IMG/VR virus record: IMGVR_UViG_3300042297_000397
Coordinates: 1 to 29,556 of that record
Strand: one strand, 5' to 3'
DNA from: a virus
Taxonomy: Duplodnaviria; Caudoviricetes
Length of the DNA: 29,556 nucleotides
Both the position numbers and the translations under genes were made by a program. Below the pieces are notes generated by a model that saw nothing but the letters and a program-made list of their open reading frames with translations, searched no databases and was not told the origin of the DNA. This document shows, piece by piece, positions 11,170 through 29,556 of this stretch (positions are counted from its first letter, which is position 1; each line of letters opens with the position of its first letter).

Positions 11170-11345
11170 CAAAACAAAAAGCCACACTTTTTGCGAAGGA
11201 TATGTATCAGGCATTCAATACTATGGACAGAAATTCTTGGCGTTCACACGTACGGAATGAAGCCCAAAAGAAAGGTGAAGATGAAGGATGGGTATTGACG
11301 GCAACTATGTGGCTGGAGCAAATGTTTAGTATGTACAGAAAATGA
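11166..11345 (+). CDS. Hypothetical protein (59 aa, not in ORF track)
   Basis: ATGA overlaps at both ends; MTKQKATLFAKDMYQAF... Confidence 0.7.
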   Translation: MTKQKATLFAKDMYQAFNTMDRNSWRSHVRNEAQKKGEDEGWVLTATMWLEQMFSMYRK

Positions 11346-11560
11346 GCCTACGCTTTGAACAGGAAGCATCTTTGTTAATGACCCGTGAGTTTTTGCTCGA
11401 CCTACTGAATACCAGCACACGACCAAAGACCGTTAAGGACTTAAAGGAAAGGGCACGAAGGTGTCTAAGGCATTACCCACCGCTAACCCAAGATGGTGAA
11501 CCCATGTTTTCAAATGACGGCTTTAGCTTGGACAATAAGTTGGACACTATGTCCAAGTAA
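11342..11560 (+). CDS. Hypothetical protein resembling BPSL0761 family
   Basis: TREFLLDL...ARRCLRHYP pattern. Confidence 0.6.
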   Translation: MSLRFEQEASLLMTREFLLDLLNTSTRPKTVKDLKERARRCLRHYPPLTQDGEPMFSNDGFSLDNKLDTMSK

Positions 11561-11805
11561 GCGCGATGCGAAATAAATAGGCGCAAAGTCAGGGTATAGG
11601 CTTACTTTTTAGCGGTAAAAGTCAACTTATAGGCTTACTTTTGAGGTTGCAAATTGAAACCCTTTCAAATGTCCGCTAATTTCGGACGGTTAATCATACC
11701 TTAACGGGTATACAAACAAACAATGTAGCGTATTTCATGCGGTTTATGACGTTATCGGGTATAAAATAGGCGTTCATTATTTCTCAATGTTCATATTTTG
11801 TGAAC
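11528..11805. repeat. Cluster of distinct imperfect palindromes, two of them duplicated
   Basis: For example TTGGACA-CTA-TGTCCAA, and AAAGTCAnnnTATAGGCTTACTTTT twice; details in findings. Confidence 0.75.
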
Positions 11806-11811
11806 GTTTAC

Positions 11812-11819
11812 TATCTTTG
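11812..11819 (+). promoter_or_regulatory. -7 promoter box (TATCTTTG) for putative sRNA
   Basis: Perfect TAnnTTTG with no downstream ATG ORF before a strong terminator. Confidence 0.6.
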
Positions 11820-11823
11820 TGCC

Positions 11824-11922
11824 AACAGTACCCGAACGCTTACCATTCAGAACAGCGTACCAGTTAGGGTCTTTTACTTAGCCCGTCAAGGTTTGTGGTT
11901 ATCCTTGACGGGTTTCTTTTTA
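11824..11922 (+). ncRNA. Putative ~100-nt small RNA
   Basis: Bounded by a promoter box and a 12-bp terminator stem (11880-11891/11903-11914) with U tract; weaker 5' stem at 11830-11870. Confidence 0.55.
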
Positions 11923-11925
11923 TTT
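11880..11925 (+). terminator. Intrinsic terminator, loop TTTGTGGTTAT
   Basis: AGCCCGTCAAGG / CCTTGACGGGTT followed by TCTTTTTATTT. Confidence 0.88.
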
Positions 11926-11982
11926 TTGTATCAATCAAACTTGACACGCCTCTGATTCAAGCGCACTTTGCCGAGTCTTTTC

Positions 11983-12038
11983 GACCCGTTGCTTTAGGTT
12001 CGTGATTCACACGGACGGCAACGGGTTTCTTTTTATTT
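11983..12038 (+). terminator. Second intrinsic terminator with structured loop
   Basis: GACCCGTTGC / GCAACGGGTT followed by TCTTTTT. Confidence 0.82.
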
Positions 12039-12045
12039 ATTTTCA

Positions 12046-12093
12046 CTTTTGTAAGTTTTATGCTATTTAGATAGAAAACGCTTTGTACTTTTG
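12046..12093 (+). promoter_or_regulatory. Putative early promoter 1
   Basis: CTTTTGTAAGTTTTA starting 40 nt upstream of TACTTTTG; same layout as at 19382 and 25434. Confidence 0.65.
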
Positions 12094-12123
12094 TCCTATC
12101 AAATAACCACAAAAACAAACCAC

Positions 12124-12360
12124 ATGGAAACAATACACAAATTAGTAAAGTATTACGAAACAGGCAAGAGAGAATACCTTGCGAAAGGAAGTCTACAACA
12201 TTGCATGAACGAACTTAACATTTGGAAGTTTCTTGCAAAAAAAAATGGAGCTGACATATCAAGTGAAGGAGATTACCATATGCATTGCGATGATTACGCT
12301 GGAAACGGCATAGTTGTATTGTTCCAAATTTATGACACTCAAGAACAACTGTTTGATTAA
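12124..12360 (+). CDS. Hypothetical early protein
   Basis: ATG 12124 after an AC-rich leader, preferred over the TTG at 12091. Confidence 0.7.
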   Translation: METIHKLVKYYETGKREYLAKGSLQHCMNELNIWKFLAKKNGADISSEGDYHMHCDDYAGNGIVVLFQIYDTQEQLFD

Positions 12361-12384
12361 TTAACCACTAAAAACCACAACACA

Positions 12385-12714
12385 ATGGAAACCAAAATGA
12401 AAGATTGCCCTGATTGCGAAGAAGGAAAGTATTATGTTGATACAAGCAGACAATGCACAAAGACCCCTTGGCAAGAATGCTGCGGAGGTTGCGGCTACGA
12501 GGTAACGTGCGAAACTTGCAACGGTTCGGGAGAAATTGAAGATGAAGATGAAAGATTTAGTGTTGGTGACAAGTTCAAGTATTTAGGACTGGATGCAATA
12601 GTGACCAATGTAGAAGTAAGCATTTACAGCGGCATTACCTACACTATTTTCATTGAATGTAGCGGTGTTACGCTTTCGGTTAATTCACTTTCAGAAACTC
12701 TTAAAAACATCTAA
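12385..12714 (+). CDS. DnaJ-like zinc-finger protein
   Basis: CPDCEEG, CCGGCG and CETCNGSG motifs. Confidence 0.7.
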   Translation: METKMKDCPDCEEGKYYVDTSRQCTKTPWQECCGGCGYEVTCETCNGSGEIEDEDERFSVGDKFKYLGLDAIVTNVEVSIYSGITYTIFIECSGVTLSVNSLSETLKNI

Positions 12715-12716
12715 TC

Positions 12717-12980
12717 ATGACCACGCTAAAACAACTTGAATCTGCGCTAAAAGACACGCCAAACCTAAGCGCATTGGCATATTTAAAAGGAGCGATTGCG
12801 GCTACTCGGTTAAACTCCGAAACCTCCGCTCACATCGAATGCGATAAAGTAACGCTGGGCGAACTTGCACGCGCTTTACAAGTGGAAACGCATTGGAATG
12901 GGCGCACTTATAGTCTGACCATTGAAAACGGGGCGCACTTTGTAATACTTCAAACACCTGTAATTGTAACCGCCAAATGA
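12717..12980 (+). CDS. Hypothetical protein
   Basis: Tightly packed ORF in operon. Confidence 0.65.
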   Translation: MTTLKQLESALKDTPNLSALAYLKGAIAATRLNSETSAHIECDKVTLGELARALQVETHWNGRTYSLTIENGAHFVILQTPVIVTAK

Positions 12981-13348
12981 AAATGACAGCAGAACAACTG
13001 GCCGCCATAAAGCAACGGCTATCGCAGCGCAAATTCCTACCCGATGTAAGTGTGGAAGGGCTATGTATTGCGGCCATGCAAGTCCACCAAATTGAGTGGG
13101 AGCAGATAACAAGAAAGTCGAACCTTCCGCACGTTGTGAAATGTCGGGAGCAAATAGCTTACGTTATCTACACCTACATCAACCAGTCTACGTACTTGGA
13201 AATGGGTAGGCTACTGAATAGAACCCATGCTACAATAATCCACAACGTACGACAAGCGAGGGCGTATTTATCAATTGAGCCGAAATACAAGCATCAAATT
13301 GAAACAATAGTAAAACTGGCAAAGGAATGGGAACAAGAGCAGAAATAA
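12977..13348 (+). CDS. DnaA C-terminal-like HTH DNA-binding protein
   Basis: VVKCREQIAY...YLEMGRLLNRTHATIIH matches the DnaA domain IV pattern. Confidence 0.8.
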   Translation: MKMTAEQLAAIKQRLSQRKFLPDVSVEGLCIAAMQVHQIEWEQITRKSNLPHVVKCREQIAYVIYTYINQSTYLEMGRLLNRTHATIIHNVRQARAYLSIEPKYKHQIETIVKLAKEWEQEQK

Positions 13349-13509
13349 TCCGCGCCCTACTACTTCAAGGCAGCTACTCCGTGGCGATGCTGCAAGAACA
13401 CGTAAGCCGAATCCAAAAGCGCAAGAAGTGGAGTGATAGCGTGATTGAAATGGAGTTGAATAAATTGCCAGTTACTAAGGATGGGAATTTATATACGATT
13501 GTAAGATGA
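13327..13509 (+). CDS. Hypothetical protein (small winged-helix-like)
   Basis: Overlaps upstream gene and ends just before a terminator. Confidence 0.55.
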   Translation: MGTRAEIIRALLLQGSYSVAMLQEHVSRIQKRKKWSDSVIEMELNKLPVTKDGNLYTIVR

Positions 13510-13530
13510 CACAGCCTGAACGATTGAAAG

Positions 13531-13562
13531 AAGCCCTTGCATTTAGTTGTGAGGGCTTTTTT
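13531..13562 (+). terminator. Intrinsic terminator
   Basis: AAGCCCTTGCA / TGTGAGGGCTT followed by T tract. Confidence 0.82.
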
Positions 13563-13563
13563 A

Positions 13564-13836
13564 TGTACAAAGTGTACACACGTTTGTACACTCTGTGTAC
13601 ACGTCAAACCCTTATAAACATTGGAAAAACGTAGTGTGTAGTGTACAAACACACTTAAAACAGTTTTAGAAAATTATTATTAAACTACTGGTTAAATTCA
13701 GTTTTGAGTGTACAAAAGTGTGTATTTTAACGTAAAACCGCGCTACCATTGGGTTTGACGTGTGTTTGAAGTGTACAAAAAGTGTACAAAAGTGTGTATT
13801 TTCTTTTTTCGTGTACAATTAAAAAAAAGTTGTACA
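13564..13836. repeat. Putative replication origin with TGTACA iterons
   Basis: About 10 TGTACA copies, a 13-bp inverted repeat (13599-13611/13751-13763), a 22-bp direct repeat (13707, 13781) and an AT-rich centre; upstream of the replication operon. Confidence 0.7.
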
Positions 13837-13937
13837 TTTGCCATCGTTCAATCGGGTAGCCGTCCGATAAACAGAAAAGAACTTATTAACCCATTCGAGG
13901 GAGGAGCGGCTACTCCAAACTCGTATGGGTTTTTTTA
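13833..13937 (+). promoter_or_regulatory. Promoter (TACATTTG) plus structured leader/attenuator
   Basis: Two hairpins with complementary loops; the second is a terminator ending just before ATG 13948. Confidence 0.65.
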
Positions 13938-13947
13938 TTGCAAAAAA

Positions 13948-14241
13948 ATGGAAGAATTAAACGAAAATTTGTCATCATTATTTAATGAAAGCATTTGGTT
14001 AAATGATGTATTGCAAGCGGAAAAGTCCTTTGACGAACTAATGGATTTAGTTGAACAGCAAAAAGAAAAACCACAAGAATATGATTACTATGATGATTTT
14101 GGTAAGAATGCCGAAATAGAAATCAAAGAGGTCAAAGAATTTGCCGATGCTATTTGGGTTAATTTGATTAGCGGAGAATGGAAGTGGAGCAAGACCCCTA
14201 AGGCCATTTGGATTGAAGCATATAACTCTACAAGCAATTAG
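13948..14241 (+). CDS. Hypothetical acidic protein
   Basis: ATG 13948 after an A-tract; the upstream part of the tracked ORF is origin/leader DNA. Confidence 0.7.
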   Translation: MEELNENLSSLFNESIWLNDVLQAEKSFDELMDLVEQQKEKPQEYDYYDDFGKNAEIEIKEVKEFADAIWVNLISGEWKWSKTPKAIWIEAYNSTSN

Positions 14242-14244
14242 GTT

Positions 14245-14739
14245 ATGGAAAAAGAATTGGTTGAGTTCTACAAAGAATTACTTTTGCCCGAATGGGATGT
14301 TTGGCAAGAAGTAAAAGGGGTTAATCCTAGAACGGGTGAACGCAGACGAATTGATTTAATCATAAGGCATAAGGAACGCCACAATTTTACCTTTGGCGTA
14401 GAGTGCAAGCGTTTGGACTTAAACGGATATAATCAATACTCTGACTGGTTAAAGCAAATGATAGTATACACCCAAGTTGAATGGGGAGCAAGAAAGCAAC
14501 GTATACCGATTTTGTCTTGCCCATCTTTAGCTGGTGCTAATGATTCTTGCGCTTATTACGCATTAAAACGCATTGCTGGTAAGTTTGGGTTGGGTGAACT
14601 ATGCAGCGAGAAAAGGTATAACAGCGATGAGCATTTATTGAAGGTTATGATGTCGGACACTATTCTTTGGAGGACTGACAACGGATTTAATGAGGGGCAA
14701 AAAAACAGAGATTTCACAAAACTAATAACATCACTATGA
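14245..14739 (+). CDS. Putative PD-(D/E)XK nuclease
   Basis: QEV...RIDLII...GVECKR...LKQMIVY. Confidence 0.6.
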   Translation: MEKELVEFYKELLLPEWDVWQEVKGVNPRTGERRRIDLIIRHKERHNFTFGVECKRLDLNGYNQYSDWLKQMIVYTQVEWGARKQRIPILSCPSLAGANDSCAYYALKRIAGKFGLGELCSEKRYNSDEHLLKVMMSDTILWRTDNGFNEGQKNRDFTKLITSL

Positions 14740-17006: not shown

Positions 17007-18228
17007 ACCATACCAAACCGAAATAAGTAACCAAGCTGCTGAAATACTATCTAAACGCAAGATAGTCTACTTAGCGATGGAGGTAAGGACAGGAAAGACT
17101 TTGACCGCATTTGCAACGCTGCAAAATGTAGGCGCGAATAGATGCTTATTTGTAACCAAGAAGAAAGCAATACCCAGCATTCAAAAAGATGCGGAGTTAA
17201 TCGGGTTCGATGCTGAATGTGTGAATTATGAAAGTTTGTATAAGGTAAAAGAACGGTTTAAGTACATCGTAATAGATGAAGCGCATTGTATTGGAGCGTT
17301 TCCAAAGCCATCGCTAAGGGCAAAGCAACTTCGTGCGATTATAGACCAAAATACCTATGTGATTCTGCTTAGTGGAACGGCAAGTCCTGAATCATTTTCA
17401 CAGTTGTATCATCAATTTTGGGTGCATCCATTAAGCCCGTTTGCGCAGTACGGAAACTTTTACAAGTGGGCTAAAGTATTTGTGAATGTCGGAGTTAAAT
17501 ACATAGGGACGGGGCAAACTACAAACGACTATTCCAATGCCAAGTATAAAGACATTGCAATGTTCACCAAGCCGCTAATGCTAACCTACACGCAAGCAGA
17601 AGCTGGTTTTACTCAACAAATTATAGAGGACATTCTTGTCGTTCCTTTGCAAAACTCAACCTATAAGTTGATTAAAGCGGTCAAAGAACATGGGATTTAT
17701 GAAGGTAAAACCGATGTTATACTTGCCGACACGGGCGTTAAGCAACAAAGCAAAGTTCACCAGCTATGCAGCGGAACGGTGATTACCGAGAACGGGGTTC
17801 ACATTGTAGATAATACTAAGGTTAGGGCTATAATTCGCAAATTCACAGGGCGCAAAATTGCCATATTTACAGTTTACCAAGCCGAGATGGACATGGTGAA
17901 AGAGTTAATACCTAATTGCGTAAGTACACCCGAAGCGTTCAATGCCGACCCAACGGCTACTTTTGTTGGGCAAATTCGCAGCAGCCGCGAAGGGGTTAAC
18001 TTATCGAGCGCGGACTGCTTAGTTTACCTAAATATCGAGTTCAGCAGTTTGTCGTATATCCAAGGGCGAGATAGGGCAACTACTAAAGACCGCACAACAC
18101 CGCCCGAAGTTTGGTTTATAATGTCGGAGGGTGGAATTGAATCGGATATTTACAACACCGTAATGAAGAAACAGGATTTCACGCTAAAACATTTCCGAAA
18201 ATGGAAAGCACCTACCAGCGAAAACTAA
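16996..18228 (+). CDS. Superfamily 2 (SNF2/DEAH-like) helicase
   Basis: LRPYQ, RTGKT, IDEAH, LSGT, EGVNL and QGRDR. Confidence 0.9.
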   Translation: MNLRPYQTEISNQAAEILSKRKIVYLAMEVRTGKTLTAFATLQNVGANRCLFVTKKKAIPSIQKDAELIGFDAECVNYESLYKVKERFKYIVIDEAHCIGAFPKPSLRAKQLRAIIDQNTYVILLSGTASPESFSQLYHQFWVHPLSPFAQYGNFYKWAKVFVNVGVKYIGTGQTTNDYSNAKYKDIAMFTKPLMLTYTQAEAGFTQQIIEDILVVPLQNSTYKLIKAVKEHGIYEGKTDVILADTGVKQQSKVHQLCSGTVITENGVHIVDNTKVRAIIRKFTGRKIAIFTVYQAEMDMVKELIPNCVSTPEAFNADPTATFVGQIRSSREGVNLSSADCLVYLNIEFSSLSYIQGRDRATTKDRTTPPEVWFIMSEGGIESDIYNTVMKKQDFTLKHFRKWKAPTSEN

Positions 18229-19381: not shown

Positions 19382-19430
19382 CTTTTGTGTTTTTTGTGTC
19401 ATTTATTTAGAAACAGTACCCCGATATTTG
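19382..19430 (+). promoter_or_regulatory. Putative early promoter 2
   Basis: CTTTTGTGTTTTTTG starting 41 nt upstream of GATATTTG. Confidence 0.55.
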
Positions 19431-19453
19431 ACCCAACTTAAAACCACAAAGAA

Positions 19454-23827: not shown

Positions 23828-24523
23828 ATGGCAAACGTAACCGTTAGATTAGACACTTCCGACATTCAAAGGATGGCATCCGAAATGTCTAGGACAAAAT
23901 TCCTTATAGCCGTATCTCGCGGCATAAACGATTCCATAAAGTTTGGAAGAACTTATGCGAAAAAGGAAGTTAAAAGACGGTACAACATTGCCCCTATTGA
24001 ATTAAGTAGGGGTGGTCGTAATGATTTGATTCCAATACGACTTGCAAAGCGTAGTGACCTTTCCGCAACCGTGTCTGCAAGCGTTAAGCAGAACATCAAA
24101 TTAAGCGCGTTTAAGGGTGTTAGCGGTGCTGGAGTTAAATTGGTTAGGAGTAAAGACGGAATGTCCATGAGAAAAGGAAGAAAGTCCGTTTCGTCATGGC
24201 AAACTGGTAAAGGCAGAGATAAAGTCCAAATTGAAATAGTGAAAGGCAATAAGGTTACAATGGATAAAGCCTTTATAGCTAGGATGAAGAACGGTCACAT
24301 CGGTGTATTCGGTAGGGCTGGTAGTTATTCGGGAGGTAAGTTTACATTTAGAAATAAAAGAGAAAGTTCAAAATCAGATACTCCAATAGCTGAATTAGGC
24401 TCAATGTCTATGAATAAAGCAATTGACAATGGCAACATTACCAATAACCTTAACCAAGCGGTTAGCACGAATGTTGAGAGCAGAGTAAGGTATTGGCTAG
24501 ATAGATATTCAAGAACGATATGA
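23828..24523 (+). CDS. Lambda gpZ-like tail completion protein
   Basis: AVSRGIN...EVKRRYNI, IKLSAF, AFIARMKNGHIGVFGR and PIAEL motifs; basic. Confidence 0.78.
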   Translation: MANVTVRLDTSDIQRMASEMSRTKFLIAVSRGINDSIKFGRTYAKKEVKRRYNIAPIELSRGGRNDLIPIRLAKRSDLSATVSASVKQNIKLSAFKGVSGAGVKLVRSKDGMSMRKGRKSVSSWQTGKGRDKVQIEIVKGNKVTMDKAFIARMKNGHIGVFGRAGSYSGGKFTFRNKRESSKSDTPIAELGSMSMNKAIDNGNITNNLNQAVSTNVESRVRYWLDRYSRTI

Positions 24524-25482: not shown

Positions 25483-25527
25483 TCGGGTCGAAAGCAACGG
25501 AGCATAGACATAACCACCACAAACCAA

Positions 25528-28000: not shown

Positions 28001-28100
28001 TCTTGATGTAACTGACCGTTTTCGTCATACTACGCACAAATAAACTTAGATTGACCTATGTTTTCCAAAGTGGTATTTAGTGCGTAATTTCGCCCCTATA

Positions 28101-28652
28101 ATGGCTAGGGCAAGAGTAAACCCATTAAGTGAGGTTATTAGTATAAGAAAGTTTGCAGCCCATATAGGGTGTGTAGAAGGAACTGTGCGCGGTGCTATCC
28201 GAGAAGGGCGTTTAAGCAAGTCCGTAATTAGGGATGAAACTGGCAAGGTTAGCGGTGTGATATGGGCTGATGCGGAAGCGGAGTGGGCAAGGAACTACTC
28301 GCATGGCAAGCATTTGTTATCTAGTGTAGCTGAATCATTAGCCGAGAAACCAACTGGCGAAGCTATAAGGGACATTAACGAAAGTCGTGCTATTAGTGAG
28401 CATTACAAAGCGGAGTTAGCTAGGATTGAGTTAGAGGAAAAGGAAAAGACGGTTGTTAGTGTAGACATGGTCAGGTCGCAACTATTCAACTTCGCCAATG
28501 AGGTTAAGGTGGTATTGCAAGGTATTCCTGACGTTTGCGTAGATGACATTTTGAGTGCGGAGGACAGAGCGGAAGCACATAACATTATGAAATTGGCAAT
28601 TAACAAAGCACTATTAAAACTTACGGAGGTTGTTGAGAGAGATTTTTCATAA
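28101..28652 (+). CDS. terS: Terminase small subunit (Nu1-like)
   Basis: N-terminal HTH (SIRKFAAHIGCVEGTVRGAIREGRL), E.YKAELARIELEEKE..VV.V coiled coil, LQGIPD; TAATTTCG box at 28085 favours ATG 28101. Confidence 0.85.
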   Translation: MARARVNPLSEVISIRKFAAHIGCVEGTVRGAIREGRLSKSVIRDETGKVSGVIWADAEAEWARNYSHGKHLLSSVAESLAEKPTGEAIRDINESRAISEHYKAELARIELEEKEKTVVSVDMVRSQLFNFANEVKVVLQGIPDVCVDDILSAEDRAEAHNIMKLAINKALLKLTEVVERDFS

Positions 28653-28668
28653 CAACAAATAGTTTTTA

Positions 28669-28676
28669 TATCTTTG
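28669..28676 (+). promoter_or_regulatory. -7 promoter box (TATCTTTG)
   Basis: Intergenic, upstream of the sheath ATG. Confidence 0.65.
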
Positions 28677-28695
28677 CGGTCTAACATAGACCAAC

Positions 28696-29556
28696 ATGCC
28701 ACAATTCTTCCACGGTGTTGAAACCATATTAGTGCCAACATCAAGTGCGCCAATCACAACCGTAGCAACTTCGGTAATTGGATTGGTAGGAACTGCCCCA
28801 ATAGGAGCGGTTAACACAATGACGCTAGTAAGTAGCCTACAAGACTGTGAGCAGTTTGGTGGTGACTTATATCCAATGACTATCAATAGGTCGTTGAAGG
28901 CTATCTTTGAACAAGGTGGTGCGCCAGTAATAGTAATTAACGTATTCGACCCTGAAACAATGGCGGACTTAATTACTGCCGAAGCTATCACAATAGCTAA
29001 TGGTCGTGCGCAATTAGACAATGTTGTTTTATTTGATACTGGTGGAGCAACCGTAAATGACCCTGTTGTAAGTGGCGGTTCTCCTTGGGCTACATTTGAT
29101 GAAGGTGATGACTACACGATAGACCAATATGGCGCATTTAGCATTGTTGCTGGTGGAGCGATAGTAGAGGGCGACACGGTGTACGTTACTTACTACACTC
29201 CTGACCCTACTGGGTTGGTATCTTCTGACTTTGTCGGTTCTTCATCTTCTCCGCGAACTGGTTTCAAATTGTTTGTTGAAGCATTGGACACTTTCGGGTT
29301 TAATCCTAAGATTTTGATTTGCCCTGAATATAGCGCAATCCCTGCGGTTGCCGCTGAAATGTCATCAAAAGCAAGCTATTTTAGAGCGGTGTGTTTGGTT
29401 GACGATGAGCAAGGTACAGACCGCGCAGATTTGGTGTCACATAGAACAGCCGCAGGAAACAGTTTTGCAAGCACGTCAAGACGTTTAGTTCCATGCGCTC
29501 CTTGGGTTAAAGCATACGATTATTTAGGTGCAATTGAAATATACCCACTAAGTCCT
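28696..29556 (+). CDS. Contractile tail sheath protein (runs off window; not in ORF track)
   Basis: MPQFFHGVETI...ITTVATSVIGLVGTAP N-terminus, V.VINVFDP, RTG and FGFNPKILICP, as in P2 FI-type sheaths. Confidence 0.92.
   Translation, partial: MPQFFHGVETILVPTSSAPITTVATSVIGLVGTAPIGAVNTMTLVSSLQDCEQFGGDLYPMTINRSLKAIFEQGGAPVIVINVFDPETMADLITAEAITIANGRAQLDNVVLFDTGGATVNDPVVSGGSPWATFDEGDDYTIDQYGAFSIVAGGAIVEGDTVYVTYYTPDPTGLVSSDFVGSSSSPRTGFKLFVEALDTFGFNPKILICPEYSAIPAVAAEMSSKASYFRAVCLVDDEQGTDRADLVSHRTAAGNSFASTSRRLVPCAPWVKAYDYLGAIEIYPLSP

Follow-up and report, generated by a model that had tools for sequence, protein, structure and literature searches.

Two predicted small RNAs with abiF-type antitoxin motifs in a phage, likely decoys for host AbiF

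We analyzed a virus record of 29,556 nt, rated 43% complete and referred to in its whole length as the window, and identified in it a cassette of two predicted small RNA genes, RNA-A and RNA-B, each bounded by a promoter box on one side and a terminator hairpin on the other and each predicted to yield an RNA of ~100 nt. The definition of RNA-A as a bounded small RNA is well supported. By homology in sequence and fold, the ~50 nt between its promoter and its terminator are an abiF-type antitoxin RNA, and the two RNAs are likely decoys that would bind the AbiF RNase of the host (Abi_2, HEPN) and hold it inactive in infection. An earlier note on this DNA had read the terminator loop of RNA-A as an antisense switch of early genes, and had passed over both RNA-B and the resemblance of the 5′ module to abiF RNA.

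Layout of the cassette and its occurrence in phages

Head and packaging genes occupy the window up to ~9.4 kb and are followed by holin-like and exonuclease genes, and a noncoding gap (11560-12124) then precedes small early genes and the primase, helicase, and recombination genes. The TAnnTTTG boxes, which we take to be the Bacteroidota-type promoter motif, together with leaders lacking a Shine-Dalgarno sequence (PMC6847099), indicate a Bacteroidota host. The features of the gap are as follows (all on the + strand).

11342..11560, +, 72-aa open reading frame of unassigned function, upstream of the cassette
11585..11645, +, two 28-nt direct repeats with 33-nt spacing, upstream of the cassette and retained in many relatives
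11812..11819, +, promoter box of RNA-A, TATCTTTG, of the TAnnTTTG type, 10 nt ahead of the first stem
11826..11875, +, 5′ module of RNA-A, abiF-type antitoxin motif in the long-loop Bacteroidota form (by the host-only model R1)
11880..11921, +, intrinsic terminator of RNA-A, 12-bp stem and U tail (by folding)
11892..11902, +, 11-nt terminator loop of RNA-A, exact complement of 12103-12113
11921..11928, +, promoter box of RNA-B, TAnnTTTG, overlapping the U tail of RNA-A
11921-12034, +, second unit, RNA-B, with its own promoter and terminator (by sequence comparison)
11935..11981, +, 5′ module of RNA-B, abiF-type motif in the short-loop (Rfam-like) form (by Rfam and R1)
11983..12034, +, intrinsic terminator of RNA-B, bulged hairpin and U tail (z = -6.1)
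12086..12126, +, box of an early promoter at 12086-12093 with its A/C-rich leader, which carries ATAACCACAAA at 12103-12113 upstream of ATG 12124, candidate loop target

The box at 11812 and the coordinates of the hairpin and its 11-nt loop, all described in the earlier note, hold. The RNA-A terminator, with its 12-bp stem and 11-nt open loop, scored z = -5.6 with 0/200 shuffles as good, and its loop bases are predicted to be unpaired with probabilities of 0.6-1.0. Our promoter and terminator scanner, which uses a sigma-70 model and loops of 3-8 nt, missed the 11812 box and both cassette terminators. In the 5′ module of RNA-A, stem P1 pairs 11830-11835 with 11864-11870 around a 1-nt bulge and stem P2 pairs 11837-11840 with 11854-11857; a 6-nt 3′ bulge and a U tail complete the unit. 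Both window copies are imperfect. In RNA-A, the C-G pair closing P1, invariant among the 23 host RNAs described below, is missing, the P1 bulge is present, and the two uppermost pairs of P1 have predicted probabilities of <0.1; P1 of RNA-B contains one A-C mismatch, and the probability of RNA-B folding into the motif is only 0.1-0.15. The L331 copy of RNA-B is fully paired.

A pattern built on the RNA-A terminator identified 7 viral loci, 6 of them real; the seventh (L085) was rejected as a chance match in a coding region. The 60 nt upstream of the terminator are as conserved among relatives as the hairpin itself, and patterns that do not depend on the loop retrieved RNA-A at 19 viral and 8 metagenome loci and revealed RNA-B. 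RNA-A was found in 30/30 records examined, some of which are near-identical strains, with a TAnnTTTG box in 29 (the 30th starts at the contig end). RNA-B was detected in 21 of the 30, always with a promoter box, and one record (G010) has an additional RNA-B across its contig ends. Terminators are interchangeable among relatives: the RNA-B terminator is replaced by a UUUGUGG-loop type in many of them, and some cassette RNAs carry other terminator types. We also observed three different extra hairpins inserted between the RNA-A motif and its terminator (L088, L090, L093, L099, L102, and L104), which gives the RNA the form of a modular array.

A second group of phages, unrelated to the first (G006, G008, G009, L358, and probably L356), also carries the cassette. 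It has <700 nt in common with the window, and its portal, terminase, and capsid proteins belong to other families; from gene sizes only, we presume this group to be crAss-like. When complete genomes of the group were sought, nothing turned up beyond the three fragments already known. Primase relatives G020-G022 and G024, a contrast provided by a single clade, had no R1 match and no AACCAC leaders. Searches of GenBank phages by blastn with window 11500-14300 and 11805-12040 gave nothing, or short weak matches only. The 72-aa open reading frame accompanies the cassette into the unrelated phage G006 and is missing upstream of it in G008; its 29 homologues include none with an assigned family, and it had no Pfam, PHROG, or PADLOC match.

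Several other elements were noted around the cassette. Sites of the GGGTA/TACCC type cluster upstream of it (window 11590-11835), and AACAGTACCC is found again in the promoter region of gene 19454 (window 19412-19425). A conserved intergenic element of ~60 nt around GGGGGCGAG, with variable flanks, lies between the first and second early genes of G001, G004, G005, G011, G014, G016-G018, L359, and L360 and is missing from the window. Direct and inverted repeats of the GTGTACA type (35-nt arms, 89% complementary) cluster at 13560-13800, just upstream of the replication genes, and are a candidate replication origin. The gene order of the window is unusual: a tail-completion gene lies amid early genes (23828-24523), a tail-sheath gene immediately follows the small terminase gene (28080-29556), and the large terminase gene is truncated at the contig start. 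The record may be misjoined or represent only a fragment. In contigs of two small-share sequencing runs, the coding and noncoding parts were covered alike; such contigs cannot reveal an RNA.

The 5′ modules as abiF-type antitoxin RNAs

We compared both units with the Rfam abiF family (RF03085; gathering cutoff, 37 bits). A scan of the whole window gave 0 matches. When a 271-nt stretch was scanned instead, RNA-B aligned full-length to abiF at 17.8 bits, below the cutoff, and RNA-A was not listed; copies of RNA-B in relatives reached 23.8-32.7 bits, also below the cutoff. Earlier candidate identities for the cassette RNAs, namely pairing with tRNA ends, mimicry of CRISPR repeats, and a Y RNA, were dropped on the abiF homology, and none had an Rfam match in the window. 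A loop-independent pattern for the core common to RNA-A and RNA-B matched 107 viral loci on many unrelated contigs, many of them chance matches and many others with a covarying outer stem. Of 20 of these loci compared with Rfam, 11 matched abiF at 45-51 bits, and 10 of a second set of 20 (two repeats) were above the cutoff. Because a filter requiring six P1 pairs mislabels RNA-A-type and some true matches, we took counts from Rfam or R1 scores.

The long-loop pattern of RNA-A matched 39 loci in GTDB bacterial genomes, mostly of Bacteroidota. A TAnnTTTG box lies 9-11 nt ahead of the motif at 29/39 of these loci, the spacing in the phage being 10 and 10, and the motif is followed by a gene for a protein of ~300 aa. 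Pfam Abi_2 was detected in 21 of the 26 downstream open reading frames scanned, and an Abi_2-like frame was detected at 27/39 loci with a local profile that 18 of the 27 had served to build; for the other 12, the fetched DNA contained no Abi frame. One host-locus protein matched PbAbiF (PDB 8VZ6) at 1e-58 and also had a PADLOC AbiD match, and 53 of 64 bases of window 11812-11875 are identical to the RNA that precedes the Abi_2 gene of L362. In five host loci (L411-L413, L415, and L424) the order is motif, terminator hairpin, and abiF; the terminator therefore belongs to a native layout. The RNA-A terminator occupies the position that the abiF gene or its attenuator takes in host loci. A sample of 151 genomes of the phylum, searched with strict filters, had matches in only 14; an Abi frame was nearby for 8 of the 15 matches outside the center genome and for none of the other 7. 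We also noted chromosomal abiF-type RNAs with no nearby Abi frame (L408, L410, L414, L416-L418, L421, and L423), two of which (L408 and L410; G064:C4:16657-16706 and 17471-17520) are 0.8 kb apart, and 12 Microbacterium phage matches for one host RNA.

The host-only model R1 was built from 23 host RNAs located with the RNA-A-derived pattern. On the window, it scored RNA-A at 45.1 bits (E = 3.5e-11), a value biased upward because the host RNAs came from that pattern, and RNA-B at 22.1 bits (E = 2e-4). These were the sole matches below E = 0.5, the next-best window match scoring 10.3 bits, and among 48 relative loci R1 gave 38 matches. The link of the motif to Abi_2 genes is independent of the bias in the score. 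In the alignment of host RNAs, 251/251 cells were paired (100%), 16 of them changed on both sides, with 0/500 shuffles as high. In phage copies, for which the alignment was fitted to the model, 93.2% were paired and 22 cells were changed on both sides (0/500 shuffles); on the same fitted alignment, the two-stem hairpin with a single 5′ bulge and a 6-nt 3′ bulge is backed by covariation across the phage copies. A swap of U-A to A-U in P2 was seen in both hosts and phages.

The cassette lacks a toxin gene in all data searched. Abi_2 was absent from 14/14 cassette records tested (of the 30 known), 8 of which are at least 90% complete, and HEPN PF05168 was found in 0/5; no Abi_2 or HEPN toxin gene lay directly downstream of the RNA in the cassette records searched. 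With the local Abi profile, we found none in the window, in L207-L246, or in L354-L361 (whole-record and metagenome loci). PADLOC identified no Abi model among 30 window proteins or among 87 open reading frames of two complete relatives, and its positive control matched.

Toxinless abiF RNAs were also found in other phages. Abi_2 was present in 4 of 34 other motif-bearing viral records, and 14 of the 18 with an above-cutoff abiF RNA, most of them fragments, were without it. In the complete cultured T7-like phages (Autographiviridae) PT2, PZL-Ah8, and Pasto, an abiF motif absent from the annotation is flanked by structural or lysis genes (L426:2501-2544, L428:2001-2044, and L427:2501-2532, respectively), and no Abi_2 was found in their genomes; PZL-Ah8 scored 50.1 bits, PT2 44.4 bits, and the third of these phages 30.3 bits, below the cutoff of 37. 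In unrelated phages, such motifs adjoin tRNA genes, precede a late gene of ~490 aa, or follow a capsid-like gene (L258, L270, L277, L290, L297, and L267; L287, L320, and L333; L312). We note that in a 142-kb phage two sub-cutoff drum RNA matches (L253:844-937 and 1292-1400) lie just upstream of a toxinless abiF motif.

Taken together, these data suggest that RNA-A and RNA-B probably act as decoys. Host RNA polymerase would transcribe both from their host-type promoters once phage DNA enters, and the phage RNAs would substitute for host antitoxin that is otherwise lost or displaced. By making the antitoxin RNA and no toxin, a phage would hold the AbiF of its host in check, much as pseudo-ToxI silences ToxN. 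The two forms of the motif, long-loop and short-loop, may cover two AbiF subtypes, and the terminator would take the place of read-through into a toxin gene and shield the 3′ end, with its loop possibly having a separate second role. In the accessible text of bioRxiv 10.1101/2025.04.15.648962, RCd22 of Clostridioides difficile, an RNA in which a terminator accompanies two abiF motifs, binds AbiF and neutralizes it in trans, also acts in cis, and loses its antitoxin activity when one stem pair is removed. Bulge nucleotides of the RNA are described as blocking the HEPN site of AbiF (accessible parts of PMC12737573 and PMC13064643). The decoy reading is supported by the presence of the cassette in two unrelated phage groups with the toxin absent, and by the toxinless abiF RNAs of unrelated phages, including the complete T7-like PT2 and PZL-Ah8; it is weakened because neither window copy reaches the Rfam cutoff and both deviate in the outer stem.

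Other readings of the cassette

The earlier note proposed a switch in which the terminator loop base-pairs with leaders of early genes (AACCAC-type) and stops their translation; the genes affected could belong to the phage itself or to superinfecting relatives. The sequence matches behind it exist: ATAACCACAAA occurs once on the + strand (12103) and once on the - strand (as the loop, 11892-11902), and the partial targets lie where they had been placed, with TAACCAC at 12362 and 25511, AACCACAA at 12373 and 19442, and ACCACAA at 25516.

12362..12380, +, segment partly complementary to the loop, leader of ATG 12385 (sequence match)
19442..19450, +, segment partly complementary to the loop, leader of ATG 19454 (sequence match)
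25510..25523, +, segment partly complementary to the loop, leader of ATG 25528 (sequence match)

Duplex prediction placed the strongest pairing partner of the loop anywhere on the + strand at 12103 (-13.0 kcal/mol), and the top four of 45 leaders were those of 12124, 19454, 12385, and 25528, exactly the genes that had been named. A run of at least 7 pairs occurred in 4/45 leaders (shuffle mean, 1.15; P = 0.025), leaders that are of one homologous promoter-leader type and so are not independent, and an 11-nt run occurred in 0.8% of shuffles (P = 0.008 for any 11-mer). The loop/leader match is thus real and above simple chance. In addition, the loop is accessible and its core, UUUGUGG, is kept across five stem variants; because the canonical loop sits on all five, its sequence seems constrained. 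A leader match of at least 8 nt was present in every siphovirus-like record that has the canonical loop and the early region.

Other claims about the targets fared less well. Three similar promoters had been proposed, each with a target gene first behind it; a consensus TAnnTTTG box (12086) lies just upstream of gene 12124 only, and none was listed before 19454 or 25528. Structural genes had been said to lack the motif, and a gene of the packaging region at 697 has a 7-nt run across its start codon; AACCACAA also occurs within a coding region (14069). The loop of the 13531 terminator does match ACTAAA, as suggested, but the match is unremarkable because ACTAAA occurs 25 times on the + strand; we dropped this idea, the 6-mer being common and three relatives being identical at the site. 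Since these leaders are A/C-rich (48% A, 24% C, and 5% G) and initiation in Bacteroidota depends on upstream adenines and low structure (accessible text of PMC6847099), matches to a loop rich in U and G arise readily. For 17 11-mers of the + strand, the exact reverse complement is present in at least one leader.

The earlier note had treated covariation of loop and leader across relatives as decisive, and we found changes on one side only, in both directions, and none compensatory. In G017, G004, and L147, the loop is altered to end in TAAT and the leader still reads ATAACCACAAA; in G001, G007, G010, G013, and G016, the canonical loop is kept and the best leader match is 8 nt, these and others having no 11-nt site. 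The second phage group has four loop variants and no matching leader, its early region lying outside the sequence examined, and this drift could reflect target loss or relaxed selection, a weak point in favor of the switch. By contrast, a control element at window 13833-13935 showed compensatory change in both partners in four relatives, so such a signal is detectable in these phages. In this element, a promoter box is followed by 13848-13856, which can pair with the inner loop of a hairpin resembling a terminator (13888-13931), and ATG 13949 comes next; the element probably serves the replication genes as a pseudoknot or attenuator leader, and the whole-window Rfam scan had no match there.

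Other observations also bear on the loop. Among 66 loci with the loop pattern, only the cassette copies and L143 fold strongly, and in L143, an unrelated phage, nearly the same loop closes a terminator that has no 5′ module and no matching leader in the 5 kb examined. Upstream of that terminator (L143:2480-2530, - strand) lies a small hairpin whose loop is similar. A 10-nt leader match in the cassette-free G022 lay inside a coding frame and was dropped. The pairing idea is further at odds with the other terminator types on some cassette RNAs, leaves the abiF module unexplained, and would require late shutoff from a host-type promoter that would be expected to fire early. In Escherichia coli, moreover, terminator loops are described as regulating, likely without base pairing (accessible text of PMC11979758). 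What stands of the proposed switch is therefore the small RNA bounded by promoter and terminator, present in every record examined, and not the antisense mechanism, for which no compensatory loop/leader change was seen; we consider it unlikely, and at most a second role. A broader proposal appears quite improbable to us as a whole, its decoy part alone being probable, namely that free-standing AbiF antitoxin RNAs are a widespread anti-defense class in phages of many hosts and are in this Bacteroidota phage family two-function molecules whose 5′ handle traps AbiF and whose exchangeable 3′ loop pairs with early leaders. If both functions were true, defense suppression would be tied to early-gene shutoff in a handle-plus-guide layout like a primitive crRNA, AbiF being the ancestor of Cas13.

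Alternatively, the cassette could be the leftover antitoxin of an abiF module from a temperate ancestor, serving now only as the terminator of a late transcript. According to the accessible text of bioRxiv 10.1101/2025.04.15.648962, prophage abiF is often beside the lysis module, which is about the position of the cassette. In our own searches, toxinless copies occurred in bacterial genomes too, so orphan RNAs can be leftovers; for these two reasons, the chromosomal orphans and the lysis-gene neighborhood, the decoy reading is weakened. The stem defects in both window copies and the host loci that already combine motif and terminator point the same way. A relic would not be expected, however, to maintain two forms of the motif with intact promoter boxes in 29/30 and 21/21 copies, to show compensatory changes among phage copies, or to be transferred between unrelated phage groups. 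Together with the lack of a tyrosine integrase in 5/5 near-complete relatives and the orphans in T7-like phages, this makes a relic a rather doubtful explanation.

Still less probable is another use of the motif, as a site at which AbiF cuts and processes phage RNA, as an AbiF-sensing attenuator, or as a ligand of another HEPN-type protein: AbiF does process its own RNA (accessible text of PMC12737573), RCd22 acts in cis as well, and many orphans lie between tRNAs or within late operons, but in the cassette a strong terminator ends each motif separately, a promoter box of its own serves the gene that follows, and the downstream genes vary between carriers.

Relation to known systems

As probable decoys, RNA-A and RNA-B would bear on a question that is largely open, namely how phages get past AbiD/F (Abi_2) systems, which are widespread and ancestral to Cas13 according to the accessible text of PMC13064643 and PMC12737573. 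The one well-studied precedent for RNA antitoxin mimicry, pseudo-ToxI, comes from laboratory escape mutants. If the reading is true, a standing, mobile two-RNA cassette and the toxinless copies in unrelated phages, cultured T7-like ones among them, would mean that phages in nature commonly counter AbiF with RNA decoys, a strategy overlooked by protein-based anti-defense screens, and would supply a role for abiF matches in phage genomes that have been reported without function. We note that the Rfam abiF model misses the long-loop Bacteroidota form.

The cassette shares with the abiF RNA of AbiF type III systems (RF03085; RCd22; PbAbiF RNA, PDB 8VZ6) the two-stem hairpin with a 1-nt 5′ bulge and a 6-nt 3′ bulge, and with Bacteroidota abiF loci the spacing of the promoter. 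RCd22 and the five host loci have, like the cassette, a motif followed by a terminator, and RCd22, as far as its accessible description goes, also has two tandem motifs. In contrast to these systems, in which the toxin gene is present, the cassette has no toxin downstream or elsewhere in the records searched; its motifs also differ from the family in being separate transcription units of different forms that score below the Rfam cutoff, with P1 altered in RNA-A. The loop-initiated antisense plasmid RNA ctRNA_pT181 (RF00242) has a large open-loop terminator hairpin, as the cassette does, and matches to its model scored 22.7 bits (E = 0.75) and 18.0 bits against a cutoff of 56. It is fully complementary to a plasmid rep leader, whereas the longest leader complement of the cassette is 11 nt.

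Among phage-borne elements, the cyanophage S-CREM1 has an abiF-motif RNA in a lytic phage genome (51.6 bits), present as a single canonical copy, and the accessible text of PMC9964418 and PMC12197685 reports no function for this small RNA and no link to AbiF inhibition. A hairpin in the cos region of phage sk1 inhibits AbiF (PMC13064643) and is thus, like the cassette in its predicted role, a phage element that counters AbiF; in the accessible text that hairpin is described as unlike AbiF RNA, whereas the cassette is a sequence homologue of AbiF RNA. RNA anti-CRISPRs (Racr) are RNA mimics of defense RNA that copy CRISPR repeats. They have RNA mimicry in common with the decoy reading of the cassette, which would copy AbiF RNA instead.

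The closest parallel is the pseudo-ToxI of phage ΦTE, which in the accessible text of PMC3594212 is a phage-borne type III antitoxin RNA that lacks a toxin and acts as a decoy against abortive infection. Pseudo-ToxI consists of ToxIN pseudoknot repeats and needs repeat expansion in escape mutants, whereas the cassette is an AbiF/HEPN hairpin and a standing element with its own promoters and terminators; the activity of pseudo-ToxI is demonstrated in that report, and that of the cassette is predicted from its sequence. In the literature searched, which included the main text of PMC5737381, we found no report of toxinless abiF RNAs as phage decoys, a claim limited to that literature. RNA antitoxin mimicry by phages is thus already known, and a toxinless abiF RNA cassette, if a decoy as we think probable, would be a new form of it.
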